Below, in pieces: positions 12,053 to 57,500 of a stretch of DNA of 64,000 nt. Both the position numbers and the translations under genes were made by a program. The first letter of the stretch is position 1, and each line of letters starts with the position of its first letter. Under the pieces are notes generated by a model. That model was given only the letters and a program-made list of their open reading frames with translations. It had not been told where the DNA came from and did not search any database. Source of the stretch: Clostridia bacterium (GTDB lineage Bacteria; Bacillota; Clostridia; Oscillospirales; CAG-272). Location of the stretch: assembly GCA_017399145.1 (NCBI GenBank), contig JAFQEG010000030.1:17529-81528 (forward strand), in the 5' to 3' direction.

Positions 12053-12292
12053 CTTATCACAGTGATATTCTGCGAAACAAGTTAAAATCAACGGTTTACC
12101 GTTGTATATCATCAATTTGAAAATTTGTATATCACCAATTTTGAAAAAATTGCATATCATCAAGTCGCGGGAAAAATACACGCTGGTGCGTGATGAGATA
12201 CGCCAAGGCGATGATATGCAACCTGCGGTTGATGATATACCAAGTCTGCGACTTGGATAAAAAGAAAACCTAATCCAAGTTCGGATTAGGTT
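12053..12292. repeat. mini-hairpin/linker array A (linker GATGATATAC family), compound palindrome
   Basis: Minus-sense linkers are GTATATCATCA 12104-12114, GTATATCACCA 12127-12137 and GCATATCATCA 12152-12162. Plus-sense linkers are GATGAGATAC 12192-12201, GATGATATGC 12210-12219 and GATGATATAC 12231-12240. Short hairpins lie between them: AACGGtttaCCGTT, ACGCtggtGCGT, GCCaaGGC, AACCtgcGGTT, CAAGTctgcgACTTG and AAACCTAATCCaagttcGGATTAGGTTT. Confidence 0.8.
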
Positions 12293-12355
12293 TCTTTTGG
12301 CGCACCTGATTTGCAACAGGTTGCAAAGACATTTCGAATTCACGACGGGCGATAT

Positions 12356-12392
12356 ACAAAAAAAGACAGGTTTTTACCTGTCTTTTTTTGTA
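12356..12392 (-). terminator. terminator of tRNA-Arg
   Basis: AAAAAAAGACAGG-ttttta-CCTGTCTTTTTTT immediately 3' of the tRNA on the minus strand. Confidence 0.8.
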
Positions 12393-12394
12393 TA

Positions 12395-12470
12395 TGGCGC
12401 GCCCGGCAGGATTCGAACCTGCGACCTACCGGTTCGTAGCCGGGCACTCTATCCGCTGAGCTACGGGCGC
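12395..12470 (-). tRNA. tRNA-Arg (anticodon ACG), CCA encoded
   Basis: The reverse complement GCGCCCGTAGCTCAGCGGATAGAGTGCCCGGCTACGAACCGGTAGGTCGCAGGTTCGAATCCTGCCGGGCGCGCCA folds as a 76-nt cloverleaf. Acceptor is GCGCCCG/CGGGCGC, anticodon loop CTACGAA, T-loop TTCGAAT. Confidence 0.9.
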
Positions 12471-12491
12471 ATACCATTTGAGTGCTTAAAT

Positions 12492-12520
12492 ATATTAACA
12501 CACATTTATTGAAATGTCAA
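12492..12520 (-). promoter_or_regulatory. promoter of tRNA-Arg
   Basis: On the minus strand: TTGACA (12520-12515), 17-nt spacer, TAATAT (12497-12492), about 20 nt upstream of the tRNA 5' end. Confidence 0.7.
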
Positions 12521-12555
12521 TAGCTTTAAGAAAAAAACTTTTTTCTTATATAATA

Positions 12556-12589
12556 ATAAAAAGTAGCCAATTGCTTGGCTACTTTTTTG
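12556..12589 (-). terminator. terminator after the 1185-aa lipoprotein gene (bidirectional shape)
   Basis: AGTAGCCAA-ttgc-TTGGCTACT (12562-12583) flanked by an A-run and a T-run. Confidence 0.7.
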
Positions 12590-12591: not shown

Positions 12592-15500
12592 TTATTCAGT
12601 TATGCCGTTGATTACGATTTCGCCACCGTCCGGAATTGCGTCGATGCAGAGGTACTTATTATACGTGCCTGCTTCCTCGTCAATCAATTCGTTGATGATT
12701 GTACAGGTTACAACTGTCATGTCGTCCTTGTACGCCTCGTTTGTTACAAGTGGGATTTCCTTACCATTTTGGGTAGCTGTAACTGATGTCCAGCTATCTG
12801 GAATGTCAACCTTGATTGTTAGTGCTTGGTTGAAGATAAAGTCGTCCATTTCGTCTGTTAGGCTAAGCTTAATTTGACTATCTGTCATCTCGGTTACGTT
12901 AACGCTTGAGGATAGATATTCCTTACCGTAAAGTGTTACCTGATGGAATGAGCCAACCCAGAAGCCTGCCTTCTTTAGATGCTCGAACTTAGAAATTGTT
13001 GCTGGGTAAGTAACGGAAATTGTTGGTCCCTCGATTTCGTGGAGACATTCAATCGTCCAAGAGCCGTTTTCTACAAGATAGTTGATGTACTTCTCGTAGG
13101 AGCCAAGAGTAACATGAAGTAGCTTGTAGCCTGAATCGTCGCCCTCGGTGTAAACAAGAGTACCACCCTGGTCAACATAGGAGCCGACGGTCTTCCATTC
13201 GAACTTATAGTTAGCCTCGTCGTAGTAGTATGTGCCTACCTCTTCGGAAAGCTCCATCATATTTGTTGCTGGATTGAATACGTAGTTTTGAACAACAAGA
13301 TCATCCAAAACAGACTTTTGGTAAATCTTTACGCCTGTAAGTGTCTTGATTACAATATGATTATTGTCGTAAACTCTGTTTTCGCCATTGTCGGCAGTTA
13401 CGCCCTCTTCAACGAGAATTTCAAAGCCACCGTTTGATAGTACGTTTGCACCCTCAATCCACTCAGTCCACTCTGAGCTGTAAACAGGGTTACCCTTATC
13501 GTTTACGCCTGTTTGTACCTTACCAAATGAGCCACTTGTGTTGATTGCGCCTGCGTATTTTACATCGCTTAAGATTTTACCATCCTTAACGAATACGTAG
13601 AAGCCCTCTGTTTGGTCGGACTTAGAAACGTAGGTGTTTAGGTCTCCCCAATGCTTACGCTCGGTTAGGTTATCCATTATGTTATCGTATACCTGAGCAT
13701 CACCGTGTCGGCCTGCTGCCATAATGCCTGCAAAGAACTTTGCGCAAGGCTCAGAGGTTGTACCACCTGGAGTTGCAAAGGTCATTACCATTTGACCCTT
13801 GAAGTTGTTCATAAACCAGTAGTTTGCTCCGTTAACCTCATTAAGTAGCTGATTTTCGTTTGCTGCGCCTGAGTAAATGTAGGTGTGGTTATATGAGTGT
13901 GAGCCAAGGTCGAATGCGCCACTTGCGAAGTAGCCCTTCCATTCCTCAACAAGTCCTGACATATAACAAATTGAAAGAACTGCTGTTGCCTTATACTTGT
14001 ATTCCAAAAGCTTTGGCACTGCCCATTCGTAGGTACCAAGGTAGTTACCATCGTCGAAGGTCATAGCCCAAGCAGAGACTGCATTGTGGTAGTATGGTGT
14101 TACTACTGGATTTTCTAGTGTTTCGTGATAGTTAAAGGTTTTCTTTGTACCACAGATACAAGAGGTTTCCTTAACTCCTAGTGTTGTTTCTGTTGCTGCG
14201 GTTACTACGGTAGGAACGCTCCAGTTATGATTCAAAACGTCTGTTGCATCGGTTTTGATTGTCATTTTACATCTTGTGCATTCCATTAGTGTGTAGCCAA
14301 CCTCGGTACAGGTAGCTGCTACTGCGTCCTTTTCGTTAGCCTTGCCATCGCCATTTCTGTCAACTATTCTGTAATTGTGCTTACAGCCTGTAAATGGCTC
14401 CATTGCAGATGCCTTTGCCTGCTCAACTATGGTAAGTGGAAGAATTTCACATACCTTATAGTCTGCCCAGCTAAGTGCTGCGCCCTTAACCTCGTATTCT
14501 ACAAGCTTGATTTTGCTTGTGGTTACGTTTGTTTCTACAAGGAAGGTACAAATTCTACCAGCCTTGCCGTCCTGTGAGTAGATACCACCCTCAGTACAGG
14601 TGCTTGAGCCAACGTAGAAGTCAAGTTCATCTTTTGTCTTCCATTGCTCGTCTTCCCAGTAGTAAAGTCTGTATTTTTTGCTATCTTGGTTTGCAGTTAC
14701 TGTGAATTGTACTGCTGCAAGATACTTGTTTTCAGAGAAGTCAAGACAAATATATACCTCGTGACCGTCTGATGCGTGCTTTGTATCGGTAAACCAGTGT
14801 GTGCTGTTTGAGCCGTCAATAGCATCAGATGGTGGGTTGCCCCATGAGTTATATACACCAGATGCAGTTACAAGTGAAGAGCCAACTAGTGATACAGGTA
14901 CTCTTTCATTCTTTGGTGCTTCAGCAAGCACTTGAAGCTCGTAAATTGCAGCTGGGCAATATCTTGTTGAGTGAGTTACAACAAGCTTAATTTCCTTTGT
15001 TGTAACAGGTGTTGGTAGTGTAACTAAAACGTTACCGTGTACACCTGATTGTGTAGCAGTCTTATCGCTAAGCTCTCCAACCTTTTGCCATTCGGTGCCA
15101 ATAAGTGCCATAATATCATAGGAAACGTAGCAGTCCTCGCCAACCTCCCATGAGGTGTAGAATGGTACAACTGCACTAATAGCACCAACTACAAATTCCT
15201 GTGCGAAGGAAATTTGCAAGTAGTTGCCTGTCATTTTAGCACCGTCAACTAGTGTGTCGGCACTCCAGTAGGTGGAAACGTTGCCGTCGATTGCAAGCTT
15301 TGGCTCACAAACTGAGTAGAAATTTGTAGCATAAGCACCACCAAATTGAGTGATATTTACAAATGGTGCATTTACATAGTCGCCACCTGTATATTTAAAG
15401 TTGCCTATTTCTAGGTCGTCAAAGCAATCAGGCTCGTCGTTGTAGGTTGCACGAATTACTTCCTCATAAACACCATTACAAACCTGACAGGTACGCTTTT

Positions 15501-16149
15501 CTAGACCTGCTGTGTACTTTGTTGCAGGAGTAACCGTTTCGTACTTGCTCCATTTGTGATCGCCCGTGGCGTTAACCTCGTTTTTTCTATCCTCGTAGGT
15601 ACAGCCCTCACGCTTACAATATTCTCTTGTGTAGCCCTTGTCTCCACAGGTTGGCTGTATAATCTCCTCGGCAAGGTCATGACCTAGCTTTGGCTTAAGC
15701 TCGTAGGTCTCACCTGTACATTTTGTGCAGATATAGTAAATCTTACCGCTATTTTCACAGTCGGGGTAGGTGTTATTTTTTCTTGCGTCCTCAACGTATT
15801 CGTGCTCACATCTAGGAGCACCACCTGTGCCAGTGTCAGCTATCCACCAAGCTGTAAGTGTAACGTCCTTAGTTACTACGTCGTTATCGAAATCCCACTT
15901 CGTATCCTTGGTTCTACCTGAATACCAGCCAGAAACCTTATAGCCATCCTTTGTGGCTGTAGGCATTGGGATTTTTTGTCCTTCCACTACTTGAATTGTG
16001 CTTTCGCTTACCATCGTACCACCATTGCCTGGGTTAAAGGTAACTGTGTACTTTGGTCCACTTGGTCCACCACAGGACGCAAGTGCAACTATGCCACAAA
16101 GGCACAATGCGCAAAGAAGAAGGCAAAGAATTTTATTTCTTAATTTCAT
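12592..16149 (-). CDS. large multidomain surface lipoprotein: Flg_new repeat, Cys-rich modules, two discoidin (F5/8 type C)-like domains, CE4/NodB polysaccharide deacetylase-like domain, C-terminal region of unknown function
   Basis: Lipobox LCGIVALASCGG. Listeria-Bacteroides repeat YTVTFNPGNGG...GYKVSGWY...DVTLTAWW (aa 34-102). Cys modules aa 113-225 and 588-670. AIDGNVSTYWSA (aa 286) and AIDGSNSTHWFT (aa 443). NodB motifs TFDDG (aa 697) and HSYNH (aa 751). Confidence 0.8.
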   Translation of the reverse strand: MKLRNKILCLLLCALCLCGIVALASCGGPSGPKYTVTFNPGNGGTMVSESTIQVVEGQKIPMPTATKDGYKVSGWYSGRTKDTKWDFDNDVVTKDVTLTAWWIADTGTGGAPRCEHEYVEDARKNNTYPDCENSGKIYYICTKCTGETYELKPKLGHDLAEEIIQPTCGDKGYTREYCKREGCTYEDRKNEVNATGDHKWSKYETVTPATKYTAGLEKRTCQVCNGVYEEVIRATYNDEPDCFDDLEIGNFKYTGGDYVNAPFVNITQFGGAYATNFYSVCEPKLAIDGNVSTYWSADTLVDGAKMTGNYLQISFAQEFVVGAISAVVPFYTSWEVGEDCYVSYDIMALIGTEWQKVGELSDKTATQSGVHGNVLVTLPTPVTTKEIKLVVTHSTRYCPAAIYELQVLAEAPKNERVPVSLVGSSLVTASGVYNSWGNPPSDAIDGSNSTHWFTDTKHASDGHEVYICLDFSENKYLAAVQFTVTANQDSKKYRLYYWEDEQWKTKDELDFYVGSSTCTEGGIYSQDGKAGRICTFLVETNVTTSKIKLVEYEVKGAALSWADYKVCEILPLTIVEQAKASAMEPFTGCKHNYRIVDRNGDGKANEKDAVAATCTEVGYTLMECTRCKMTIKTDATDVLNHNWSVPTVVTAATETTLGVKETSCICGTKKTFNYHETLENPVVTPYYHNAVSAWAMTFDDGNYLGTYEWAVPKLLEYKYKATAVLSICYMSGLVEEWKGYFASGAFDLGSHSYNHTYIYSGAANENQLLNEVNGANYWFMNNFKGQMVMTFATPGGTTSEPCAKFFAGIMAAGRHGDAQVYDNIMDNLTERKHWGDLNTYVSKSDQTEGFYVFVKDGKILSDVKYAGAINTSGSFGKVQTGVNDKGNPVYSSEWTEWIEGANVLSNGGFEILVEEGVTADNGENRVYDNNHIVIKTLTGVKIYQKSVLDDLVVQNYVFNPATNMMELSEEVGTYYYDEANYKFEWKTVGSYVDQGGTLVYTEGDDSGYKLLHVTLGSYEKYINYLVENGSWTIECLHEIEGPTISVTYPATISKFEHLKKAGFWVGSFHQVTLYGKEYLSSSVNVTEMTDSQIKLSLTDEMDDFIFNQALTIKVDIPDSWTSVTATQNGKEIPLVTNEAYKDDMTVVTCTIINELIDEEAGTYNKYLCIDAIPDGGEIVINGITE

Positions 16150-16229: not shown

Positions 16230-17453
16230 TTACTCTTCAGGATATTGTGCTAGACGAACCTCTGACCAGTAGCATGTACCATAAGAGGTTGTTTCCATGT
16301 AAATTACAACCTTTGCGATATCAGCACCAACCTCGAATTGGTTAACGTTTGTGCCAGCCTCAACAGAACCGAAGCCACCTCTACCGAAGCCAACCTCTTC
16401 ACCGTCGTAGTCGTACCATGTTACAACGTATGAGGATGAGCCCATACCTGCTACGTAGATAAGGTCAACATATGTAGCCTCTTCAAATACAAGTGTACAT
16501 GTAACAGGCTTTTGGTTACCTGCGATTGCCTTACTTGTCCAGTTGTTGTCGATAAGTGTTGCACCTTGGTCCATACCCCAACCTGCTGCGGAGTCCATTT
16601 GAGGATTGTTCTTACCAAGAGCCTTAAGTGTTACGTCTGTAAACTTTTCAGAAACCTTTTCTGAGCAAACCTTACATACACCAGTTCTTTCCATTGGTGT
16701 GTCTGTGTTCCAAGTGAAGCTATGTCCAAGTGCTGGTGATGTTTCAGTTGTTTCTGTAATACCACAGCCTGGTACACCACATGTACGCTCACGAACCTCA
16801 GGAGTTGTACAAGAAGCCTCAGTCTTAATCTTATAACCACCAGTTGAAGCCCAGTCGTGGTTTTCTGTACCGTCGATACAGTAGTTAATCTTATCCCACT
16901 TTGCTGTTAGCTTAATATCAGCATTGATAATAGATGTTTGTGTGTATTGTACACCCTTGTCGTTGTACCAGCCCTTAAATCTAAAGCCGTCAAGCTCAGC
17001 CTCTGGTGTTTTACCAAGTCTGTCGCCTGCCTCAAGCTCGATTACTGTGGCTGGCTCGTTGCCATCCTCGTCAAGCTTAAGTGATTCGCCTGGGTTAAGG
17101 ATAAGCTCAACTGTAACAAGAGCGCCCTCGCCCTCGTTTCTTTGCCATTGAGCGATAAGGTCCATATCGTACTCAACCTCGAAGGAACGTGTGATCTTTT
17201 CCTCAAGTGTTGTGTCGTCAACGTCGTACCAGCCTAGGAAGGTGTAACCCTTTCTAATAGGTGTTGGAAGCTTACCAATTTTTTCTTCCTCGCCACGATA
17301 GAATTCTGTCTCAACGTCATCATTGAGTGTACCACCATTTGGGTCAAGAGTAACTAGGTATTGTGGACCCTTATTACATGCAACCACCATTGGAAGTAGA
17401 AGTACACATACAAGTACTACGCTAAGAAGCTTAATAAGTGTGTTCTTTTTCAT
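16230..17453 (-). CDS. surface lipoprotein, smaller paralog-type (two Flg_new repeats, Cys-rich module, discoidin-like C-terminus)
   Basis: I chose the ATG at 17453, giving MKKNTLIKLLSVVLVCVLLLPMVVACNKG. Repeats GYTFLGWYD and GFRFKGWYN. Cys module CGVPGCGI...GHSFTW...CKVCSEKV. Confidence 0.75.
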   Translation of the reverse strand: MKKNTLIKLLSVVLVCVLLLPMVVACNKGPQYLVTLDPNGGTLNDDVETEFYRGEEEKIGKLPTPIRKGYTFLGWYDVDDTTLEEKITRSFEVEYDMDLIAQWQRNEGEGALVTVELILNPGESLKLDEDGNEPATVIELEAGDRLGKTPEAELDGFRFKGWYNDKGVQYTQTSIINADIKLTAKWDKINYCIDGTENHDWASTGGYKIKTEASCTTPEVRERTCGVPGCGITETTETSPALGHSFTWNTDTPMERTGVCKVCSEKVSEKFTDVTLKALGKNNPQMDSAAGWGMDQGATLIDNNWTSKAIAGNQKPVTCTLVFEEATYVDLIYVAGMGSSSYVVTWYDYDGEEVGFGRGGFGSVEAGTNVNQFEVGADIAKVVIYMETTSYGTCYWSEVRLAQYPEE

Positions 17454-17522
17454 TTTTGTATTCCTTTCAAATATATTACAAAATATTACAGAGGGGGAGA
17501 ACACCCCCTAACTTGCTCTTTT

Positions 17523-19498: not shown

Positions 19499-19574
19499 GC
19501 TACTATGGCTCAGTTGGTAGAGCACATCCTTGGTAAGGATGAGGTCGCCAGTTCGATTCTGGCTAGTAGCTCCA
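19499..19574 (+). tRNA. tRNA-Thr (anticodon GGT), CCA encoded
   Basis: GCTACTATGGCTCAGTTGGTAGAGCACATCCTTGGTAAGGATGAGGTCGCCAGTTCGATTCTGGCTAGTAGCTCCA. Acceptor is GCTACTA/TAGTAGC, anticodon loop TTGGTAA, T-loop TTCGATT. Confidence 0.9.
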
Positions 19575-19575: not shown

Positions 19576-19605
19576 AAAAACGACAGGTTAAGCCTGTCGT
19601 TTTTC
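19576..19605 (+). terminator. terminator of tRNA-Thr
   Basis: AAACGACAGG-ttaag-CCTGTCGTTT followed by TT. Confidence 0.75.
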
Positions 19606-19606
19606 A

Positions 19607-19868
19607 ATTAAATCCGTCGCAACGGGTTAAATCCCACTGACGTGGGATGAAATCACTACGTGATGAAGTCCGCCTTCGTCGGGTTGTAGATAGACGGATT
19701 TGATTTCATCTGAGTTGCAAACGAAGATTTCATCCAAGTGTGCTTGGATTTCATCGTGCTTTTGCACGATTTCATTCTACTATATATCATCAACCGAGGG
19801 TTGTATCCTCTCTCGCTGTGATGATAGACAATTTCTGCGAAATTGGTGATATACAAGGCTTTGCCTTG
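19607..19868. repeat. mini-hairpin/linker array B (GATGAAATC-type, then GATGATATAC-type linkers), compound palindrome
   Basis: Plus-sense linkers are TTAAATC 19608, GTTAAAT 19626, ATGAAATC 19647 and ATGAAGTC 19663. Minus-sense linkers are GATTTCATC 19702, GATTTCATC 19726, ATTTCATC 19748 and ATTTCAT 19769. These are followed by ATATCATCA 19783, GATGATAGAC 19820 and GGTGATATAC 19845. Hairpins between them are CCGTcgcaACGG, CCCACtgacGTGGG, CACtacGTG, CCAAGtgtgCTTGG, CGTGCttttGCACG, AATTTCtgcGAAATT and AAGGCtttGCCTT. Confidence 0.8.
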
Positions 19869-19879
19869 ATTTTTTAATT

Positions 19880-19913: not shown

Positions 19914-22900
19914 TTATTCTTCCACTCGGTAGTTGAATATCCTTTCTGCCCTATAAAGCTCATCCTCGGCACAGTTTACATCGACTATCCATTGTTTCTC
20001 TGTGCCTGCATAATACATCTTTTCTACGCCTGAATCTAGGAATGCGTATGGGTGAATTGTCTCGAGGCCTATTCCAAAATAGACTGTTTTCAGGTTTGTA
20101 CAGTTTCTAAACGCTGATGGGCCTATACTTGAAACTGAGTTACCTATTACTACCACTTGTAGCTTTTCATTACCACGGAAAGCATCACCAGCTATGGTTT
20201 TAACTGTTGATGGGATTACGTATTTACTGTCAAGCTTTGCTGGCGGGTATGCTATAAGCGTAGTCATATCCTTTTTAAATACTACTCCATCAATGCTACA
20301 TAGATACGGGTGATCCTGTGCTACAAAAAATTCCGATAATCCAAAGCAACCTGCTAGTGACCAATTGGAAACTCCTGTAAGCGTTGCAGGGATTGTCATA
20401 GCGCTTATATTGTAGCATCCCCAAAATGCATCGTTACCAAGGACACGGGTTGTGCTTGGGAAATCAATTCCTCTTAATTCTGTACAAAACCAAAAGGCAC
20501 CCATGTCAATCCATTCAAGTCCCTCATTGAGATTAATGGTTAGTAGATTGCTACAATTTGAAAAGGCATAGTTCTCGATTGAGAAAACAGTATCAGGCAA
20601 AGTTACATACAGAATGCTTTTGTTGTCCGCAAAGGAATATGGCCCAACTATCTCAGTACCACTTGGCACTATGTAGGTGCTACCTTCCTTCTTTGGTGGG
20701 TATCTTACTAGCCTACCTTCACTATCAAATAAAACGCCATCTATACTATAAAAGGCTTCACTTGTTTCGTCAACCGATATACTTTCTAGGTTTGATTGAG
20801 AAAACGCCTCATAGTTAATTGTAGTTGTTGTGCTTGGAATTGTAACAGTTTTAAAGCCTACCTTACTAAACGCATATTCTTGAATTGTCTTAAGGCTTTC
20901 ACCTAGGTTTACATTTTCTAAGCCTGTACAATTGCTAAAGGCGTACTCGCTAATAAAGGCTGTACCATCTAGGGTTACGTTTTTAATATTGATACAATTC
21001 TCGAAATATCTAGTTGGCACGCTTGAGGCACCATATACCACGGTTGTTAGCTTATCTGGAATATAGAAGCCATAGTACATAGGATTGTACTTGCTGTCAT
21101 CATAGCATTGAAGGGTTTTTGTTGAACCATCAAATTTCTCCTCTCCGAATAGATATCCAAAGTATCTAGTTTTAAGAATATCCTCATCGCCTTCATAGTA
21201 AGTGTTAATTTTTTCTAAGTTGTAGCATCCCGACAGAATTGCCTCGCCTAGTGAGGTTATATCCTTAGACACTGTATATTCCTTTACAGCGGTACAGCCC
21301 TTAAAGGCATAATTTCCAATAGTCATAACTCCCTGTATGTCTAGGTTTTCCATTGAAGTGCAATTCAAAAATGCGTAATCCTTAATTTCGTAGACGCTAT
21401 TTGCCACTAGGGTGGTTAAAGAATTACAATTTGCAAAGGCATAGCTACCTATACTATCAATTGTTTCCACTATTGAAAATTCCTTTAGCTTAATACAGCC
21501 TGAGAATGAATTATTATGGATTACGATATCCTTGTAAGGTATGTAGCCATTTGCGCTTACCTTTACAAGCGAGGTGCAGTTTTCAAAGGCATTTGCACCA
21601 AATTCAGCCACTGCTCCGGCTATTTCTACATTTTCTAGTGCTTTACACTCTGCAAATGCATAGCTACCGATAGTTGTATCTTTGACTGGTAAGGATATAC
21701 CCTTTAGGCTAGTACAGTTATAGAATGCGTAGTCCTTAAATACCTCTACGCCCTTAGGTGTTGATAGCTGTACAAGGCTAGTACAGTTTTCAAAGGCACT
21801 CTTGCCTATACTATTTACCATTGTGCTAAAGGATACGCTTTCAAGTCCTGTACAATTACGGAAGGCACCCTCGCCAACCTCGCTAAGATATTGTGGTAGA
21901 CTTACGGTCTTTATTCCTACTATGCCCTCAAAGGCATATTTGTGAATGCTTGTACAAGTGCTACCCTCTTCAAAGGTAAGGCTTGTTAGCTTAGGTGCGT
22001 TTTCATTTTGCTGATATTCAGGTCTAAACAGATAGTTAGGTATTTCTTTTGCCGCTGTACCTATTATCAATGACGTGCCCTCTGTGTCAGCACCTGCACG
22101 ATAGAATATTTTGTTGCTTTCCTCCAAGCTATCATTTACTATGGTATGCACAATATTATAGTTGATTTTTGATAGCTTGGTTGTACCATAAAAGGCTTCA
22201 TAGTCTATGTGTACACTTTTTCCACCAAGGGTCAATTCCTCAATTGAAGCACAATTCTTGAAGGCTTTCTCGCCAATTGATGAAATATCATTGTCTAATG
22301 TAACCCTCTTCAAATAGATGTTATTCTCGAAGGCGTGATTGCTTATTAATGTTATGCCCTGTGGAAGGGTAAAGTCCTCATTTTTTCTGTCCTGTGGGTA
22401 GCAAATTAGGATTTCGCCTTTTATTAATGCGCCGTTATCTACCCTAAGTACTGAGTTTTCTTCGTCAACTATTATTTCCTCTAGCAAGCTACAACCATTA
22501 AAGCTAGTTGGAGATACCACAGTAAGTGAAGATGGCAATTTAATTGTGGAAATAGCGGTGCCTGTAAAGGCATACTCGTCTATTTCATTAAGTCCCTCGT
22601 TTAGGCTTATAGAGTTAAAGCCACAATTATAAAATGCATAGCCATAGATTTTAACTGTGCTTGGTGATAAATTCACCTCGGTCAATGCTGTACAATTATA
22701 AAAGGCTTTCTCTTTTACCGCTTGGACTTCGTTTGGTATTTGAATTTTCTTTAGTCCTGTACAGTTTTTAAACACACCTGCACCAAGTACTCTAACTCCC
22801 GTTGGAATTGTTATTTTTTCAATTCCAACACAGTCTGCAAAGGCTTCATCACCGATAGACGTAATATCACTAGGAAGAATTATTTCCGTTAGGCTACCAC

Positions 22901-28140: not shown

Positions 28141-28147
28141 ATTTACG

Positions 28148-28256
28148 ATCTTTAAGGTCGATACAGAGATATCGACAAGATTTGTGTTAAATATTGTTCC
28201 CCTTTTTGTGCTTTGGGGATATTATGCGAATCTTGTCGTGGGACAAGATTTTTTTA
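28148..28256 (+). promoter_or_regulatory. pyr transcription attenuator (PyrR-binding-like anti-antiterminator, antiterminator, terminator)
   Basis: The hairpin ATCTTTAAGGTCGATACAGAGATATCGACAAGATT (28148-28182) resembles the PyrR-site pattern UCUUUAA..GUC.AGAGA..GAC.AAGA. GACAAGATT (28174-28182) can alternatively pair with AATCTTGTC (28229-28237). The terminator is ATCTTGTC-gtgg-GACAAGAT plus T7 (28230-28256). Confidence 0.6.
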
Positions 28257-28282
28257 TTGCAGTTTCTAAAGGAGATACGAGA

Positions 28283-35170: not shown

Positions 35171-35262
35171 AAGAATAAATAAAACAAGGGGTTTAGATGG
35201 TGAGGAAAATTGCGATTTTCGTTTTTACCAACCTGTAAATCCCCGTATTAAAGGAGTCTATA

Positions 35263-35914: not shown

Positions 35915-36000
35915 GCAAATCGTTGCCTTGCAGTTATGATTACACTTTCGTGTAAGTTATGAGCTTTGCTTTCGCAAAACGTTATGAGTGACTACGTCAC
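35915..36000. repeat. mini-hairpin/linker array F (linker GTTATGAG/GTTATGAT; pyrE-pyrB spacer)
   Basis: GCAAatcgTTGC (35915-35926), GTTATGAT (35933-35940), TACACtttcGTGTA (35941-35954), AGTTATGAG (35955-35963), TTTGCtttcGCAAA (35965-35978), GTTATGAG (35981-35988), GTGACtacGTCAC (35988-36000). Confidence 0.75.
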
Positions 36001-37485: not shown

Positions 37486-37520
37486 GAGATTTTCACGCTT
37501 GTGAAAATCTCTTCTTTTTT
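37486..37520 (+). terminator. terminator of the pyr operon
   Basis: GAGATTTTCAC-gctt-GTGAAAATCTC followed by TTCTTTTTT. Confidence 0.8.
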
Positions 37521-37521
37521 A

Positions 37522-37636
37522 TGCTTTTCCTAAGTGCGACCTCTTCTCTGTCGTACAAAGTACGCCGACGAGTACGAGTTCACACTTTCTCACAGCACTC
37601 TAACGCCTCTAGGGTTAGTTTGTGCGTGGCAGTCAG
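37522..37636. repeat. hairpin-mosaic repeat, copy A
   Basis: TGCTTTTCCTAAGTGCGACC...GTACaaaGTAC...CTAACgcctctagGGTTAG...TTTGTGCGTGGCAGTCA, colinear with 37771-37930. Confidence 0.75.
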
Positions 37637-37770
37637 ATATAAGCATAGAACGAAAAGCAGGGTATTCACCTTGCTTTTTTTCTTCCATTAATAACTCGTC
37701 TATAAGGTAGGATTTTTCTATTTTTATTCACTTGTTTCCAAGGCTTTACTTTAGAAAAATCCCTTTTATC

Positions 37771-37930
37771 TGCTTTTCTAAAGGCGACCGCTACTCTGCA
37801 GTACACAGTACGGCGACGGAAACCCCCAAAGCTCATTCTTCACTTTGGAGAACCCCTGGCGACGTGTACGCGTTCACCTTTTCTCTACCTCTCCTGATGC
37901 CCCTAGGTGAAGTTTGTGCGTGTGGCAGTC
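37771..37930. repeat. hairpin-mosaic repeat, copy B, with an extra internal hairpin
   Basis: Colinear with copy A, with many substitutions that keep the stems (GTACacaGTAC). It has 46 extra nt: a 39-nt hairpin-containing insert (37819-37857) bracketed by GGCGACG at 37812-37818 and 37858-37864. Confidence 0.75.
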
Positions 37931-37935
37931 AAAAG

Positions 37936-37990
37936 CCGACTAACAGTCGGCAATGAAATTACCTTGTGATGAGGACCTTGCAAAGCAAGG
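37936..37990. repeat. short mini-hairpin/linker array D
   Basis: CCGACtaacaGTCGG (37936-37950), CAATGAAATT, GTGATGAGGAC (37966-37976), CCTTGCaaaGCAAGG (37976-37990). Confidence 0.65.
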
Positions 37991-38001
37991 ATTTGAATAA
38001 T

Positions 38002-48731: not shown

Positions 48732-49012
48732 CAAAGGCACGCTTCGTTGAAGCTACACCTCATCCGTCTGCTATGCAGACACCTTCTGCACAAGGCACGC
48801 CCTGAAGGGTGCCCTCAAGGGGAAGGCTCAATTTTGATGCAGTTCTAAAATTACAGGACGGCAAGGTTGTGTTTGATTTTTAACAAAGGCACGCTTCGTT
48901 GAAGCTACACCTCATCCGTCTGCTTTGCAGACACCTTCTGCACAAGGCACGTTTCTTCAGGGTGTCCTCAAGGGGAAGGCTTATAGACGGCGGGGTGTGT
49001 TTGATTTTTGAT
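48681..49012. repeat. 152-bp tandem repeat, about 2.2 copies (topB 3' end plus hairpin-mosaic element)
   Basis: Copy 1 is 48681-48832, copy 2 is 48833-48984, and a partial copy 3 is 48985-49012. Each unit holds the last 16 codons plus the stop of topB and the element GCTACACCTCATCCGTCTGCtatGCAGACACCTTC...CAAGGGGAAGGC. Confidence 0.85.
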
Positions 49013-54323: not shown

Positions 54324-54358
54324 TTAGCGTGTTTTCGTTGAGCAAAACACGCTAATTT
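54324..54358 (-). terminator. terminator of the HAD gene
   Basis: TTAGCGTGTTTT-cgttgagc-AAAACACGCTAA, with a T-run on the minus strand. Confidence 0.75.
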
Positions 54359-54359
54359 C

Positions 54360-55274
54360 TCACTTCTTTTTATTCCTTTTGGCTACAATAGGGGTTACTG
54401 TGCTTTTATGTTTTTTTAGTGGAGATTCTAATTTCTCTTGCTTTGGTTCTTCCACCTTGGGTTCCTCTGCCTTTGGTTCCTCTGGCGTGGGCTCCTCTGC
54501 CTGTGGTGCTTCAGGCTGTGGGTCTTTATTTGGAAGCTTGTTTTCGTATTTAGATAGGTCGGTTTTCATTTTGATTTGGATTTTTGTCTTTTTTCTCTTG
54601 GGGTCCTTTTCGTCAAGGACCTTATCTATTACACGAATTAAGCCCTCGGTGTCGCTAACTATGTAGTCGGCGCCTGCCTCTCTTAAAACCTGCTCGGTGC
54701 GATAGCCCCATGTAACGGCTATTGAAAGCATACCTGCATTATGGGCAGTTTTAACGTCAACGTCGGAGTCACCAACAAAAATACAATTTTCAGGCTTGGC
54801 ACCTAGTGCCTTAGCCACTAAAAGCGCACCCTCGGGGTTTGGCTTTTTAGGTAGGTCGTCTCTGTTGCCTAGAGTACATTTGAAAAGCTTTTTACCAAAT
54901 AGCTTTTCTGTAAGAGCACGAACGAATTTATCCTGCTTATTTGATAAAACGCCTAGTCTTATTTTTCTTTCCTTAAGTCCACCTAACGCCTCGGGAATAC
55001 CGTCAAAGGGATAGGTATCGTTTGCATAGCATTTTGAATACTCGTCCTCGTAGGTTGCAAGGGCGCTATCTACCACAAGGTCTATATCTTGAAGCTCCTC
55101 GGGAAGTGATTGACGAACAAAATTCCTAGCACCATTGTTGATAAAGCGAATAAGCTCACCCTTTGTGCGCGTATCATAGCCTAGCTTTTTAAGCATATTA
55201 TTCATAGCGGTGCCTAGATCGTCCATTGTGTCAGCTAGAGTGCCGTCTAAATCAAAGATTACTGCGAATACCAT
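54360..55274 (-). CDS. HAD-superfamily phosphatase (phosphoglycolate phosphatase-like) with a Pro/Glu/Lys-rich C-terminal tail
   Basis: Motif I is FDLDGTLADT and motif IV is VGDSDVD. The last 90 aa or so are low complexity (PQPEAPQAEEPTPEEPKAEEPKVEEPKQEK...KRNKKK). Confidence 0.8.
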   Translation of the reverse strand: MVFAVIFDLDGTLADTMDDLGTAMNNMLKKLGYDTRTKGELIRFINNGARNFVRQSLPEELQDIDLVVDSALATYEDEYSKCYANDTYPFDGIPEALGGLKERKIRLGVLSNKQDKFVRALTEKLFGKKLFKCTLGNRDDLPKKPNPEGALLVAKALGAKPENCIFVGDSDVDVKTAHNAGMLSIAVTWGYRTEQVLREAGADYIVSDTEGLIRVIDKVLDEKDPKRKKTKIQIKMKTDLSKYENKLPNKDPQPEAPQAEEPTPEEPKAEEPKVEEPKQEKLESPLKKHKSTVTPIVAKRNKKK

Positions 55275-55414
55275 ATTTACCTCCTTTGTAGTCTTTACTT
55301 TAATATTGTAGCATACATTTTGAGAAATTTAAAGTCCTTTATTATATATTAATGTTGCTTTTTTTAATTTGCTATGTTAAAATTATTTTGTAATATGGGT
55401 AAATAGGAGCTTTT

Positions 55415-56344
55415 ATGAAAATTTATAATTCTGCAATTGACCTAATTGGAAATACACCCTTAGTTGAGCTTGGAAATATTGAAAGGGAGCTTTCTCTTAC
55501 AAGCAAAATTTTTGCTAAGGTTGAATATTTTAACCCCTGTGGCTCGGTTAAGGACAGGGCTAGTCTTTATATGATAAACGAGGCTGAGAAAAAGGGGCTT
55601 TTGAAAAAGGGATCAACTATCATTGAGCCTACCTCGGGCAATACTGGTATTGGGATGGCTATGATTGGTGCACTACGTGGCTATTCTGTTATTATTGTTA
55701 TGCCTGATAATATGTCAAGGGAAAGAATTTTATCAATTGAAGCATATGGCGCAAGGGTTGAATTGACTCCTGCTAGTCTTGGTATGAGTGGGGCAATTGA
55801 GAAGGCTAAGGAATTATCATTGCAAATTGAGGGTAGCTATATTCCTTCACAATTTGATAATTTTGATAATTCTCTTGCCCATTATGAAACGACGGGTCCT
55901 GAGATTTATAGCTCGCTTGAGGGCAAGATAGACTATTTTGTTTGCGCCTTTGGTACAGGTGGGACAATTAGTGGTGTTGCAAGGTATCTTAAGGAGAAAA
56001 ATCCTAATATAAAAGTAGTTGGCGTTGAGCCTCTTTCCTCACCATTTATTTCTAAGGGTGCTAGTGGCACGCACAAGATTCAAGGCATTGGTGCCGGCTT
56101 TAAGCCTGAGATTTTAGACCTTGATTTGATTGACGAGATTATTTGTGTAAGTGACGAGGACGCATACAAATTTGGTGCTATGCTAGCAAAAAAGGAGGGA
56201 CTCTGTGTAGGAATTTCCTCAGGTAGCGCTCTTTGTGCAAGTGTTGAGATTGCAAAAAGACATAAGGGTGCAAGCATAGCTACACTCTTTGCCGATAGCG
56301 GACTTAGGTATTTATCCGTTGACGGATATTTTAAAGGAGAATGA
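55415..56344 (+). CDS. cysK: cysteine synthase A (O-acetylserine sulfhydrylase)
   Basis: PLP-lysine motif NPCGSVKDRA, TSGNTGIG loop, 309 aa. Confidence 0.9.
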   Translation: MKIYNSAIDLIGNTPLVELGNIERELSLTSKIFAKVEYFNPCGSVKDRASLYMINEAEKKGLLKKGSTIIEPTSGNTGIGMAMIGALRGYSVIIVMPDNMSRERILSIEAYGARVELTPASLGMSGAIEKAKELSLQIEGSYIPSQFDNFDNSLAHYETTGPEIYSSLEGKIDYFVCAFGTGGTISGVARYLKEKNPNIKVVGVEPLSSPFISKGASGTHKIQGIGAGFKPEILDLDLIDEIICVSDEDAYKFGAMLAKKEGLCVGISSGSALCASVEIAKRHKGASIATLFADSGLRYLSVDGYFKGE

Positions 56345-57276
56345 AAATGAGTGAGAATAAAAAAGCGACTACACCCTTTTTCAAAAGACTAACTGACCCA
56401 AATTACGAGCCAAATTCTATTGGCGAACGAGTAATGCGTGGCTTTTGGTCTTACATAGTTATAACTGTCGGTACTCTTTTAATTGCTTGTGGAGTTTACT
56501 TCTTTAAGTTTCCTAACCACTTTACAGTTGGTGGCGTAAGCTCGCTTTCAGTTGTGCTTACTCACTATTTTCCACAGATTAACGAGTCCATATTTATGGG
56601 TATTGCAAACGTGCTTTTGCTAATTGTGGCATTGATTATTTTCGGTAAGGACTTTGCTATTAAAACAGTATATTCAAGCCTTTTGCTTTCTGCCTCAACT
56701 ATTGCTATGGAATATATTTATCCTATTGAGGAATCACTAACAGGGGATAAATTTCTTGACCTTTTGTTTACAATTGGTGGTATTGCAATTGGTAGTGCTA
56801 TTTTGTTTAGTCAAGAGGCAAGCTCCGGTGGTACTGATATTATTGCTATGATTCTTAAAAAGTTTACTAGTGTAAATATCGGCACTGCTCTTTTGATAAC
56901 TGACGTTATTTTGGTTGTTTTGGGTACTATTGCCTTTGGCATTGAGATAGGTCTTTATTCTCTTTGTGGTCTTGTAATTAAGTCCTTTATTGTTGATAAC
57001 GTAATTGACGGCTTTAACTTAAATAAATGCTTTATTATAGTTACTGACAGAGACGTTGAGCTTTGTGAGTTTATTAACAATCAGCTACACAGGGGTGCTA
57101 CGGTTTCAATGTGTACGGGCTCCTTTACTCACGATAATAAGAGAATGATTATTACTGTTTTGAATCGTCAACAGGCTTCACAGCTAAAGAAGTTTATTAA
57201 GAAAACTGACCCACAGGCGTTTAGTATAATTACCAACTCAACGGATATACTTGGAAAAGGATTTAGAATAGTTTGA
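56341..57276 (+). CDS. YitT-family membrane protein (C-terminal DUF2179)
   Basis: Multi-TM N-terminal part with GGTDI, and a C-terminal soluble domain of the YitT type. Overlaps the cysK stop. Confidence 0.75.
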   Translation: MKMSENKKATTPFFKRLTDPNYEPNSIGERVMRGFWSYIVITVGTLLIACGVYFFKFPNHFTVGGVSSLSVVLTHYFPQINESIFMGIANVLLLIVALIIFGKDFAIKTVYSSLLLSASTIAMEYIYPIEESLTGDKFLDLLFTIGGIAIGSAILFSQEASSGGTDIIAMILKKFTSVNIGTALLITDVILVVLGTIAFGIEIGLYSLCGLVIKSFIVDNVIDGFNLNKCFIIVTDRDVELCEFINNQLHRGATVSMCTGSFTHDNKRMIITVLNRQQASQLKKFIKKTDPQAFSIITNSTDILGKGFRIV

Positions 57277-57396
57277 TTTACACGCCTCTCTGTGCGAGGC
57301 TACACCTCATCCGTCAGCTTTACTGACACCTTCCCCTCAAGGGGAAGGCTTTAAAACTCAACGGATATTTTAGGAAAAGGATTTAGAATAGTATAG
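57235..57396. repeat. 120-bp-offset direct duplication of the yitT 3' end flanking a hairpin-mosaic element
   Basis: AACTCAACGGATATACTTGGAAAAGGATTTAGAATAGTTTGA (57235-57276) is repeated as AACTCAACGGATATTTTAGGAAAAGGATTTAGAATAGTATAGA (57355-57397). Between the two copies lies GCTACACCTCATCCGTCAGctttaCTGACACCTTCCCCTcaaGGGGAAGGC. Confidence 0.85.
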
Positions 57397-57500
57397 ACAA
57401 GGTGTACTACACCTTGTCCAACGAAATCCTCTTACGAGGATGAAATCAACTGTGTTGATGAAGTCACTTCGTGATGAAGTCCTCGCTACGCAAGGGTTAA
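57396..57500. repeat. mini-hairpin/linker array E
   Basis: GACAAGGTGTactacACCTTGTC (57396-57418), CCTCttacGAGG (57428-57439), ATGAAATC (57440-57447), CAACtgtGTTG (57447-57457), ATGAAGTC (57458-57465), CACttcGTG (57465-57473), ATGAAGTC (57474-57481), CCTCGCtacGCAAGG (57481-57495). Confidence 0.75.

Follow-up and report, generated by a model that had tools for sequence, protein, structure and literature searches.

Hairpin arrays at gene ends of a Clostridia bacterium include divergent Gut-1 RNA members and may be fast-changing relatives of REP/BIME repeats

Introduction

The Gut-1 RNA motif (Rfam RF01706) is a described class of unknown function (PMC2864571). Repeats of the REP/BIME/REPIN and BOX kinds are placed where transcription units have their 3′ ends, often in the form of two inverted halves, and in REP/BIME and BOX the palindromes are conserved. 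Template switching, for its part, is a documented one-event source of stems and of multi-base compensatory changes (PMC8794818). Here we analyse hairpin arrays in a 64-kb stretch of DNA from a gut Clostridia bacterium (the window; Table 1). Their placement is like that of the repeats named above; here, however, the linkers alone are conserved and the palindromes vary.

Results

The original prediction described chains in which a short linker alternates with small hairpins, and every site that it listed is present as described. Requiring at least three copies of one 8-mer (up to one mismatch) spaced by 13-36 nt, with a hairpin of at least 4 bp within every linker-to-linker interval, we found 7 chains in the window, where 60 dinucleotide-shuffled controls gave 0.52 on average and 3 at most, which bears out the predicted enrichment; all 7 are intergenic and 6 fall at the sites already claimed. 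With up to one mismatch, the linker GATGAAATC has 31 matches in the window versus 14.05 ± 4.0 expected, 15 of them array-internal and clustered at 19.6-19.78, 35.08-35.15 and 57.44-57.48 kb, and GATGATATAC has 12 where 2.56 are expected, with 9 falling at 12.10-12.24 and 19.78-19.85 kb. The linker GTTATGAG, two copies of which lie at 35.95 kb, 25 nt apart, is by itself not enriched in the window (3 versus 2.1 expected). The original prediction placed all sites under one architecture; the elements at 48.7 and 57.3 kb (E4) are a different family from the GATGAAATC arrays; the 64 kb contain 5 Gut-1-type and 4 E4-type copies. The non-Gut-1 linker families recur in other MAGs: that of the 12.1-kb composite in locus L093, with an identical terminal hairpin CCAAGTCTGCGACTTGG, and the GTTATGA(G) family in locus L099, where a Gut-1 array comes directly after it.

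Table 1. Features of the window, by position
Position	Strand	Feature	Remarks
1489..1645	+	three related hairpins (GTGGAAATATGGAAAAC-loop-GTTTCCCACATTACCAC)	convergent intergenic region; separate family
12081..12263	.	two-halved composite, GTATATCATC / GATGATATAC linkers (3 + 3 units)	downstream of tRNA-Arg(ACG)
12395-12470	-	tRNA-Arg(ACG)	
19499-19574		tRNA-Thr(GGT)	directly upstream of hairpin 0
19576..19604	+	terminator-type hairpin (hairpin 0)	directly after tRNA-Thr(GGT); then CAATTAAATCC, start of composite
19605..19692	+	Gut-1-type four-hairpin array, tRNA-proximal half	RF01706 40.1 bits, E 2e-4; R1 72.8 bits (copy in R1 training set)
19670..19777	-	inverted Gut-1-like composite half	R1 23.0 bits, E 1e-4; Rfam Gut-1 19.6 bits
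19780..19875	.	GATGATATAC-type linker array	partly common to alternative allele in L131
35058..35079	+	hairpin GAGTTTG ttgggtaa CAAACTC	last 7 nt of pyrF and inverted copy; stop codon in loop
35081..35174	+	Gut-1-type four-hairpin array, pyrF-pyrE	R1 38.8 bits, E 3e-9; Rfam Gut-1 33.0 bits
35930..36000	+	GTTATGA(G)-linker array, 3 hairpins, pyrE-pyrB	
37519..37635	+	copy A of ~120-nt repeat, downstream of pyrI	without nested hairpin
37766..37931	+	copy B of ~120-nt repeat	46-nt nested hairpin 37812-37857, direct repeat GGCGACG on both sides
37927..37999	+	degenerate Gut-1-type array	R1 21.5 bits, E 2.8e-4
48732..48832	+	E4 copy A	starts at topB stop codon
48833..48883	+	51-nt duplicate of topB 3′ end	cf. 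48681-48731; exact copy in L143, L146
48884..48985	+	E4 copy B	
48986..49011	+	diverged 26-nt topB-end copy GACGGCGGGGTGTGTTTGATTTTTGA	downstream copy in all filled alleles of type
57277..57355	+	E4 element	starts at stop codon of yitT-like gene
57356..57397	+	42-nt duplicate of yitT-like gene end	cf. 57236-57276
57398..57505	+	hairpin 0 (CAAGGTGT act ACACCTTG) and Gut-1-type four-hairpin array	R1 53.6 bits, E 1.6e-13; Rfam Gut-1 31.0 bits
57503..57558	+	variant E4-like element (CTACCCATCCGTC-hairpin-...CCTCACAAGGGTAGGCAAG)	

The GATGAAATC/GATGAAGTC arrays are divergent members of the Gut-1 family. Three of them align with the Rfam model over its full length (19605-19674, 35081-35154 and 57419-57483), the best match, at 40.1 bits, lying below the gathering score of 50; relatives exceed that score, reaching at most 78.3 bits. 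A covariance model of our own, R1, recovers 5 window copies, and 155 copies from gut Clostridia MAGs (about 100 loci, 670 kb in all). In the R1 alignment 97.1% of cells are paired, a percentage inflated by fitting the alignment to R1 itself, and double changes occur at 17 of 20 pairs; none of 500 shuffles was as high, and slid controls were 31-49% paired. Stems are frequently closed by U.G (in 40 and 75 sequences at the two outer pairs), and in 36 of 40 composites the tRNA strand gives the more stable RNA fold. The original prediction knew of no described function or mechanism: a described family does exist for the GATGAAATC class, and its function is indeed unknown.

The linkers are not neutral spacers. 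Their ends (ATC...GAT/GGT) form the basal pairs of the hairpins on either side, so that the AUC...GAU part belongs to stems and about 3 bases (GAA) are left unpaired. The order of linker variants is identical in three window copies (AATTAAATC, GGTTAAATC, GATGAAATC, GATGAAGTC in the array after tRNA-Thr), the arrays are not open-ended, and position-specific linker variants, stem lengths and loops are conserved across about 100 MAG loci. Because the linker ends pair in stems and the linker order is constant, the linkers are conserved parts of a structured module and not target-site duplications.

The modules lie at the 3′ ends of transcription units and are co-oriented with them: they follow stop codons, separate cistrons or stand about 40 nt past tRNA or tmRNA genes. 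Downstream of and co-oriented with a tRNA or ORF are 53 of 59 classifiable strong matches (~90%), and 32 of 82 evaluable strong R1 matches (39%) have a tRNA or tmRNA on the same strand no more than 150 nt upstream of them (median 40 nt; 11 tRNA types and tmRNA), for a chance expectation of about 0.8%. No divergent promoter region of the window has an array. The form found after tRNA and tmRNA genes is a two-halved palindromic composite of ~170 nt, and the layout tRNA-CCA-GAAAAA-hairpin-TTTTTCAACTAAATCC recurs in about 40 MAG loci. At tRNA-Thr the inverted half, homologues of which are present in other loci, reads AATGAAATC-h-GATGAAATC-h-GATGAAATC-h-GATGAAATCAAATCC on the - strand, and its conserved internal loops are tandem G.A pairs on the + strand; the array beyond it has one inverted linker TATATCATC, then GATGATAGAC and GGTGATATAC units, and ends with GATTTTTT.

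Between strains of 98-99.9% identity the modules are polymorphic, and the predicted module-wise gain and loss was seen at the topB, yitT, tRNA-Thr and pyrI-downstream sites. The topB-cdd spacer measures 39, 141, 167, 193, 319, 380 or 474 nt, including an empty site with a single copy of the topB end (L141), and relatives of the variant E4-like element occupy the site in L144, L145 and L142. At gene stop codons E4 is inserted in 1-3 copies across strains with 27-50-nt gene-end duplications, and direct target repeats accompany some events: they are 27 and 50 nt long for the end of topB and 42 nt for that of yitT. L136, which reads gene end-E4-gene end-E4-gene end, wholly lacks the ~240-nt Gut-1 block that follows yitT. 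The tRNA-Thr block is swapped whole between near-identical flanks; a 26-nt direct repeat brackets the alternative composite in L131. At another site a nested hairpin has 7-nt direct repeats around it.

E4 copy A has constant parts (CTACACCTCATCC, ACC, GGCT and hairpin c, CCTTCCCC/GGGGAAGG), two variable hairpins, a and b, and an additional hairpin nested within it; copy B differs from it at a single loop base and in the orientation of one loop segment (CTTCAGGG versus CCCTGAAG). The gene-end duplications after topB and yitT and the compensatory stems GTCTGC/GCAGAC versus GTCAG/CTGAC had been correctly read, and the latter generalise: E4 is present at 70 metagenome loci from rumen and human gut, where it often forms inverted doublets, and 65 of 71 metagenomic copies retain a perfect hairpin, with 28 different arms. 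Flanking direct repeats of the target at E4 elsewhere are a minority (6 of 56 copies versus 1.8% in controls).

Smaller changes were also seen. E4 shows a loop inversion and a nested 25-nt hairpin between strains, and two otherwise near-identical composites differ in two compensated pairs and a nested hairpin. Downstream of pyrI there are a unit loss between two linkers, a paired stem indel and a replaced terminator hairpin: the degenerate array there (hairpin 0 GCCGACT/AGTCGGC, then AATGAAAT and GATGAGGAC) lacks one 20-nt unit of the canonical three-unit array in L005 and has the stem indel. The extra hairpin of copy B does have its 7-nt direct repeat, as claimed, and is an indel polymorphism, copy A of L005 having it too. 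The junction hairpin copied from the pyrF end exists in two versions, L005 having a different pyrF end, to which an inverted copy in that strain corresponds (GAATTTATCG actaaag CGATAAATTC). The pyrF-pyrE array differs from that of L005 at only a few positions (loops and one linker), both flanks being unalignable; this array and the pyrE-pyrB array are unchanged in 9 further assemblies of the same species.

Discussion

Our best explanation, which we hold with belief and doubt in equal parts, is that the arrays form families of structured repeats akin to REP/BIME, which template switching and slippage remodel; they behave as a new and fast-changing relative of those repeats and not as scars of serial insertion. 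This joint reading takes the window to hold at least five families of extragenic repeats, all small, structured and present in multiple copies, built alike from a hairpin 0 followed by units of constant linker and variable hairpin, each family being defined by its linker and stem-closing bases while the stems need only pair. The modules would be read as single strands on the gene-sense strand, which would be the 3′-UTR or trailer RNA and equally the lagging-strand template, and their rows of short stable hairpins may serve as 3′-end or intercistronic structure.

Turnover would be of two kinds. Whole modules may be gained, tandemly duplicated, lost or swapped at gene ends, and inside the hairpin-dense tracts replication template switching and slippage would act. 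Slippage would delete units between identical linkers; template switching could rewrite both stem arms at once, invert loops, nest new hairpins in old ones and build junction hairpins from the adjacent gene end.

It is possible that a dedicated mobilising enzyme drives the turnover, but we found no RAYT or other candidate gene, either in the window or in the neighbourhood of about 190 related loci, and the window indeed has no cas, transposase, RAYT or integrase gene, as first reported. Of the original interpretation, the gain, loss and swapping of whole modules, some with direct target repeats, is supported, but array linkers as target duplications of serial small insertions are not: the arrays are homologous multi-hairpin modules with strong covariation that match an existing covariance model (Rfam Gut-1), and strain differences in unit number consist of one linker-plus-hairpin unit lost between two linkers, a slippage-type loss, while we saw no case of a unit gained together with a fresh copy of the target.

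The best explanation meets difficulties of its own. If template switching acted alone, stems would not be expected to change ten times faster than linkers, and it does not explain the unalignable flanks around an unchanged array between strains. After tRNA genes the composite lies past an intrinsic terminator, and therefore little RNA may be made there. A specific recognition or strand that the model does not name is hinted at by the T-N-C loop bias and by the tandem G.A loops in the distal half. The T-N-C bias is common to unrelated families.

Results

Arrays of hairpins and constant linkers in the window

Reading the sequence directly, we found rows of short hairpins joined by a short constant string at the sites where the original prediction had placed them. 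With at most one mismatch, GATGAAATC occurs 31 times in the window against 14 expected, its array copies clustering at 19.6-19.78, 35.08-35.15 and 57.44-57.48 kb, and GATGATATAC-type strings occur 12 times against 2.6 expected, nine of them at 12.10-12.24 and 19.78-19.85 kb. For a chain test we required one 8-mer at least three times, a spacing of 13-36 nt and a hairpin of at least 4 bp in every interval, with 60 dinucleotide shuffles as the control. The window holds seven such chains, all of them intergenic, against a mean of 0.52 (maximum 3) in the shuffles, and six of the seven coincide with predicted sites; both the rows and their enrichment are thus confirmed.

The ends of each linker are themselves base-paired, closing the hairpin as AUC-stem-loop-stem-GAU or GGU, and the only unpaired remainder is GAA. 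Three arrays on the + strand carry the linker variants in a common order (xAAATC, G(G/A)T(T/G)AAATC, GATGAAATC/GATGAAGTC, GATGAAGTC, then GGTT), and are therefore copies of one four-hairpin module of about 90 nt rather than open-ended chains. The stems are different in every window copy. T-runs are found only at hairpin 0, the terminator-type hairpin after tRNA genes, and at operon-end hairpins; the array hairpins run instead into GAUGAAAUC-type linkers and, having no U-tracts, do not match the definition of an intrinsic terminator as a G+C-rich hairpin with a U-tract. In all, the 64-kb window contains five Gut-1-type copies and four copies of a second family, E4, all intergenic. The single arrays occupy the pyrF-pyrE spacer and the regions following pyrI and a yitT-like gene, always on the gene strand, and there is none in the divergent promoter regions of the window. 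The same grammar is also used with other linkers (see table), and the GATGATATAC, GTTATGAG and TATGGAAT families were each found again in other metagenome-assembled genomes (MAGs).

Table. Gut-1-type matches and arrays with other linkers (window coordinates; R1 is our covariance model of Gut-1-type arrays)
Feature	Position	Strand	Linker	Score or remark
R1 match	19605-19692			training copy
R1 match	19670-19777	-		23.0 bits
R1 match	35081-35174			38.8 bits, E 3e-9
R1 match	37927-37999			21.5 bits
R1 match	57419-57505			53.6 bits, E 1.6e-13
Rfam Gut-1	19605-19674			40.1 bits
Rfam Gut-1	35081-35154			33.0 bits
Rfam Gut-1	57419-57483			31.0 bits
Array	12081-12263 and 19780-19875		GATGATATAC	same grammar, other linker
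Array	35930-36000		GTTATGAG	same grammar, other linker
Array	alternative allele in L131		TATGGAAT	same grammar, other linker

Relationship to Gut-1

Gut-1 (Rfam RF01706) was described from 43 metagenome sequences, all from the human gut, without organism, context or function, and was graded as a likely RNA that is not cis-regulatory (Weinberg et al. 2010, Genome Biol 11:R31; PMC2864571). In an Rfam scan with an E-value threshold, three window copies aligned to the full model (positions 1-77) and a fourth match scored 19.6 bits. The three copies have the RF01706 architecture, with hairpins joined by G(U/A)UGAAAU, AU...GU closing pairs and alignment over the whole model. Since no window copy reaches the curated gathering score of 50 bits, they are divergent Gut-1 relatives rather than threshold members; copies in related MAGs score 52-78 bits (up to 78.3), and many relatives exceed the threshold. 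The window copies resemble the published motif in having at least three hairpins, AU...GU/AU closing pairs and GAA within G(U/A)UGAAAU, in the same order and spacing, and in their gut-associated, uncultured, Clostridia-type source, but have in addition a fourth hairpin and GAUGAAGUC variants, and their triloops are mostly U-N-C.

Scanning one genome per species for the pattern gave at least 120 loci, with hairpins between the linkers in 87 of the matches listed; nearly all matches listed are Clostridia, Eubacteriales, Oscillospiraceae and Acutalibacteraceae MAGs from ruminant, horse and human gut. R1, trained on 37 relatives, found 155 copies in 670 kb of MAG loci. In its alignment 97.1% of cells are paired, a percentage that leans high because the alignment was fitted to the model, and two-sided changes occur in 17 of 20 pairs (592 cells), the number of pair types being independent of the fitting. 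None of 500 shuffles was paired as highly, and slid controls reached 31-49%. New relative to published Gut-1 are the location behind tRNA genes, tmRNA genes and stop codons, a second half in inverted orientation, the multi-copy status, the strain polymorphism and the sister families with other linkers.

Placement and strand

A composite of 140-170 nt contains the module as its first half at about 40 loci. The composite starts with tRNA-CCA-GAAAAA, a terminator-type hairpin, TTTTTCAACTAAATCC, four hairpins and a short spacer, and its second half consists of three to four hairpins on the complementary linker GATTTCATC, closing with GATTTCATT. Exactly this layout follows tRNA-Thr at 19576-19777. 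A same-strand tRNA or tmRNA gene ends at most 150 nt upstream of 32 of the 82 evaluable strong matches (about 0.8% by chance), at a median distance of 40 nt and with 11 tRNA identities plus tmRNA represented, and 53 of 59 classifiable matches follow a tRNA or an ORF in the same orientation.

When composites were folded as RNA, the tRNA strand was the more stable in 36 of 40, and it was favoured for the proximal half in 37 of 40. U.G closing pairs are common in the R1 alignment, and the conserved internal loops of the distal half are tandem G.A on the tRNA strand and U.C/C.U on the other. These observations suggest that the whole composite may be read on one strand, as RNA or as lagging-strand template. 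Comparing G.U with A.C counts within strictly delimited stems did not discriminate between the strands, since these stems consist almost purely of Watson-Crick pairs. Triloops in Gut-1 halves from MAGs and in hairpin b of E4 from metagenomes are overwhelmingly T-N-C on the gene-sense strand, closed by C:G (TTC, TAC, TGC, TCC and TTT; the other strand reads G-N-A), and the bias is common to unrelated linker families.

The E4 family

The elements after topB (48.7 kb) and after the yitT-like gene (57.3 kb) belong to E4, a family separate from the Gut-1-type arrays and with no match in Rfam. E4 consists of a variable hairpin a, CTACACCTCATCC, a variable hairpin b, ACC, a constant hairpin c (CCTTCCCC/GGGGAAGG) and GGCT. 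An exact-pattern scan located it on 70 metagenome contigs from rumen and human gut, often in the form of an inverted doublet; 65 of 71 copies have a perfect hairpin b, and 28 different arms occur. E4 also has a hammerhead-like CUGAUGA string on its reverse strand and anti-Shine-Dalgarno-like CACCUC strings on its forward strand, but the remaining core elements are absent. At two loci (L156 and L188) E4 apparently lies in frame within a long repetitive Q/A-rich ORF (812 aa in L188), which may be likened to the palindromic elements inserted within genes in Rickettsia.

Variation between strains

Alleles of the same loci were fetched from other assemblies by exact-protein look-up, those of the yitT locus via the protein of the neighbouring gene. 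At pyrF-pyrE-pyrB both arrays are identical in nine assemblies. The 98% identical strain L005 keeps all four pyrF-pyrE hairpins with few point changes (two loops and one linker), although 12-24 nt on the gene side and the entire pyrE-side spacer cannot be aligned. Every strain has, directly behind the final 7-10 nt of pyrF, an inverted copy of that very sequence, and the stop codon occupies the loop. Directly after the pyrE stop codon (window 35914 region) there is a 10-nt length polymorphism among strains other than L005, GGCAAGGCAA being present or absent before AGCAAATCG (loci L001, L003-L006, L008 and L009); it looks like tandem-repeat slippage, unconnected with the hairpin units.

Larger changes were seen after tRNA-Thr, where two assemblies with flanks 99-99.9% identical to the window fill the roughly 250 nt from the tRNA CCA to the following terminator with a wholly different sequence. 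This alternative filling (L131) has its own terminator hairpin and a composite with other linkers, around which lies a 26-nt direct repeat. The topB-cdd spacer is 39, 141, 167, 193, 319, 380 or 474 nt long across strains. The site is empty in L141. In L139 and L147 a single short E4 has entered the stop codon behind its T, changing TGA to TAA, with a diverged 26-nt gene-end copy 3' of it. The E4 of L140 is long, its hairpin c enclosing a 25-nt hairpin within the stem, and the window, L143 and L146 have a second E4 plus a 51-nt gene-end copy (exact in L143); the two topB E4 copies show an inverted loop segment, CCCTGAAG versus CTTCAGGG. In L144 and L145 a different element uses the same left junction without duplication, and L142 carries nested combinations. 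At yitT, L136 reads gene end-E4-gene end-E4-gene end, and the 240-nt block holding Gut-1 is absent. Each alternative allele at tRNA-Thr and topB-cdd was present in at least two independent samples.

After pyrI, L005 has a canonical three-unit Gut-1 array, and the window is short of one 20-nt unit between two linkers. At the same site a paired indel separates the stem CCTGC/GCAGG of one strain from CCTTGC/GCAAGG of the other; the terminator hairpin differs between the window and L005; and a 46-nt hairpin with a 7-nt direct repeat is a presence/absence polymorphism. L049 contains two composites at a distance of 1.3 kb that are almost the same over 200 nt; the differences are two compensated pairs in the terminator stem and a nested hairpin within a loop. 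The 12.1-kb locus showed no variation among the four strains retrieved.

Neighbours and carriers

The 64-kb window has no transposase, RAYT, integrase or cas gene, in agreement with the original prediction, nor a reverse transcriptase gene, and none of these recurs near about 190 related loci. The sole enriched neighbour of Gut-1 is a gene for a PF05635 protein (23S rRNA intervening-sequence protein/DGR Avd-like four-helix bundle), found at 19 loci (among them L049 4028-4375 and L087 995-1351) 3' of the composite with its own TGTGATATAAT promoter; often a small variable gene comes next, such as one for a WapI-like immunity protein. At L049, L087 and L051 the PF05635 unit lies between two composites, with a cargo gene in the first two; no PF05635 gene is present in the window.

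BLAST searches with E4 against plasmids and with the composite against phages gave no match. A scan of viral contigs returned no E4 and 120 matches to the Gut-1 pattern, of which only two are real composites and the rest coding tandem repeats, indicating that the elements are not phage-borne. The elements are not on plasmids or phages. In a full-text literature search the linker sequences matched primers and shRNAs only, and nothing relevant was found on REP/RAYT in Clostridia. At L021 1150-2480, tandem GTCATTCCGAGCG...GAGGAATCTCATCC-type units lie beside Gut-1 arrays in the spacers of prepilin-like genes; the number of small hairpin repeat families in these genomes is much larger than the set studied here.

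Discussion

The explanation we favour, giving it about an even chance of being right, is that the arrays are REP/BIME-like families of structured repeats, Gut-1 among them, which are read on the gene-sense strand and evolve by module rearrangement and template switching. The regions are highly dynamic, modules being gained, duplicated, lost or swapped whole. Template switching and slippage would generate the loss of units between identical linkers, multi-base compensated changes and paired indels, as well as loop inversions, nested hairpins and junction hairpins copied from the adjacent gene end; template switching is documented to generate stems and to compensate several bases in a single event (Monttinen and Loytynoja 2022; PMC8794818).

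The original prediction had taken the linkers for targets duplicated by serial insertion of small hairpins. Linker order, number and closing pairs are, however, conserved across species and captured by one covariance model, so the linkers cannot be serial target-site duplications and are instead conserved, partly paired parts of a structured module. The prediction is supported in part, in that whole modules are gained, duplicated, lost and swapped, some with direct repeats of the target.

In placement, abundance, doublets and strain variability the arrays match REP/BIME/REPIN and BOX elements. Like REP sequences they are extragenic, lie at gene 3' ends or between cistrons, are co-oriented with the gene, abundant (five Gut-1-type and four E4-type copies in 64 kb) and hairpin-forming; BIMEs are likewise palindrome mosaics with constant linker motifs, and in REPINs too the apparent unit is an inverted doublet and is strain-variable. 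Their defining distinction is a fixed linker combined with a free palindrome, whereas in REP the palindrome sequence is conserved; in our elements both the window stems and the arms of E4 hairpin b vary. REP hosts are Proteobacteria and the mobilising enzyme is RAYT, a Y1 HUH transposase, whereas our hosts are Clostridia, a cognate RAYT is absent from the window and from the recurrent neighbours of about 190 loci, although a single-copy gene may lie elsewhere in the genome, and the units are much shorter (13-25 nt). BOX of Streptococcus pneumoniae (boxA-boxB(n)-boxC) also consists of modules, among them tandem internal units in variable number; it lies in many copies between the genes of a Firmicute and has a predicted structure and no known enzyme, but its modules are 45-59 nt long and conserved in sequence. 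To our knowledge, BOX has neither a grammar of short constant linkers and free hairpins nor an association with tRNA ends. Template-switch (quasipalindrome) mutation, reportedly the subject of work by Ripley and by Lovett, accounts for one-step multi-base compensation, stems taken from adjacent sequence and loop inversions, all three of which we found between strains or paralogues. It is, however, a mutation process and not an element, and leaves linker constancy and the arrival of modules at new sites unaccounted for.

Other known systems fit less well. Constant repeats alternate with variable inserts as in a CRISPR array, but they are 8-10 nt instead of about 23-50 nt long and partly paired with the "spacers", which are self-complementary rather than foreign and keep their positions across species; cas genes are absent from the window. 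Some modules are flanked by target duplications and the doublets have inverted halves, as in a MITE with terminal inverted repeats, but the copies are not near-identical, the duplications are 26-51 nt and variable in length rather than fixed and short, they are usually absent, and a parent IS was not found.

Gut-1, an orphan RNA motif since 2010, is now placed in Clostridia MAGs of the ruminant and human gut as one of several parallel families with constant linkers and free hairpins, tied to the ends of tRNA, tmRNA and protein genes, and near-identical strains differ by whole modules. This opens the hypotheses of a 3'-end RNA structure, of strand recognition in single-stranded DNA and of hairpin evolution driven by template switching, and provides a natural system for watching compensatory stem evolution at the population level. 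The repeats also yield spurious short "hypothetical proteins" and are places at which gut MAG assemblies frequently break and strains frequently differ in structure.

There is a low but real probability that Gut-1 and the composite are instead a dedicated non-coding or cis-acting RNA with one specific partner, the turnover at the DNA level being incidental. The repeated GAUGAAAUC/GAA motifs might, for example, titrate or position a multimeric RNA-binding protein, or GAUGAAAUC arrays in mRNAs might pair as antisense with GAUUUCAUC arrays in the composite. The strong covariation and position-specific hairpin geometry, the verdict of Weinberg et al. on Gut-1, the array kept in L005 between diverged flanks, the tandem G.A loops on the tRNA strand and the exact complementarity of the linkers in the two halves all agree with such a role. 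However, a single trans-acting RNA would not usually have about five copies per 64 kb and at least five parallel families that share its grammar on different linkers, strains differ in the presence of copies without visible cost, many lie behind terminators, and the only conserved candidate for a partner-protein gene nearby is the four-helix-bundle gene, at a minority of loci.

We consider it unlikely that an active element accounts for the arrays, with an enzyme that nicks at gene ends or in linkers and inserts hairpins or modules, fill-in duplicating the target, so that linkers and gene-end repeats would both be target-site duplications. E4 does lie between gene-end copies of 27, 50 and 42 nt with L141 as the empty site, and the left junction following GATTTTT within the topB stop codon is common to three different insertions. 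The repeats around the L131 composite and the nested hairpin (26 and 7 nt) and a 31-nt gene-end duplication at E4 in an unrelated metagenome locus (L205) point the same way, as do the direct repeats flanking 6 of 56 E4 copies (1.8% in mismatched controls). In addition, genes for DUF559-like (Vsr-type PD-(D/E)XK) endonucleases lie within about 300 nt of E4 at 4 of 70 loci (L169, L203, L221 and L212). They are divergent (29-33% mutual identity), none was found in Gut-1 or viral loci, and their significance is uncertain because the contigs are short. The conserved linkers nevertheless argue against this explanation, and the 50 E4 copies without flanking repeats suggest that the repeats mark either recent events only or tandem duplication. 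The L144-type element shares the junction without any duplication, duplications of variable length (26-51 nt) fit no known transposase, and L136 and part of the topB series are explained by tandem duplication or unequal exchange between gene-end copies. A candidate enzyme is absent from the window.

A more speculative proposal, which we regard as decidedly unlikely, is an undescribed enzymatic system in gut Oscillospirales-type Clostridia by which hairpin modules would be written and rewritten at the 3' ends of genes, tRNAs and tmRNA. The writer could for example be a nickase, an HUH-type enzyme or a snap-back polymerase recognizing the family linker on one DNA strand; it would use the end of the target itself to make junction hairpins and would swap composites whole, as cassettes, and the Avd-like four-helix-bundle gene or the DUF559 endonuclease could be among its components. 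Such a system, if real, would be a new class of mobile or diversifying non-coding element.

We find it improbable that the two-halved composites are recombination or cassette-boundary sites used on one folded strand, like integron attC or tRNA-island att. The 3' flanks of tRNA and tmRNA genes, where the composites lie, are classic sites of island integration, a small unit is enclosed by two composites at three MAG loci, the composite after tRNA-Thr was swapped as a block, and structure is conserved and sequence variable as in attC. Yet an integrase or recombinase was found near none of about 100 loci, most composites have no cassette, none in the window encloses a unit or has the four-helix-bundle gene, and single arrays inside the pyrF-pyrE operon and between pilin genes are places where cassette logic is inapplicable. 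At L021 the cassette model failed, as the arrays simply separate pilin-like genes, and readings of tRNA fragments (att-like) beside some composites failed on inspection.

Finally, that the arrays are nothing special (ordinary terminators, chance palindromes in AT-rich spacers or assembly artefacts) is almost certainly wrong: hairpin 0 and the operon-end hairpins are ordinary intrinsic terminators and the data are metagenome assemblies, with a scaffold gap inside the E4 tandem of L138, but the enrichment over shuffles, the covariance-model E-values down to 1e-13 in non-training copies and the hundreds of homologous copies in independent assemblies, with every alternative allele recurring between samples, refute it, and the array hairpins have no U-tracts.

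Other features of the window

A match to the PyrR binding site (RF00515) at 28145-28258 (+) scores 45.7 bits against a gathering score of 54 (E 0.0045); as it lies just upstream of the pyr operon, which extends to 37.4 kb, this pyrimidine attenuator is probably real. Around 26-30 kb, gene orientation switches from mostly - (1.8-28 kb) to mostly + (28-64 kb) and GC skew from -0.19 to +0.17, with the cumulative minimum at 28 kb, which may mark a replication origin or a strong divergent boundary. There is no dnaA in the window; DnaD/DnaB_2-like and DnaI-like genes are found at 51.0-52.9 kb. The two tRNA-linked composites are flanked by large surface-type proteins (19914-25565, 12592-16149 and 16230-17504, all -), one of 1883 aa with BspA-type leucine-rich repeats and two with Listeria-Bacteroides repeat domains. 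Three consecutive paralogous M42 glutamyl aminopeptidase genes occupy 6472-9551 (-).
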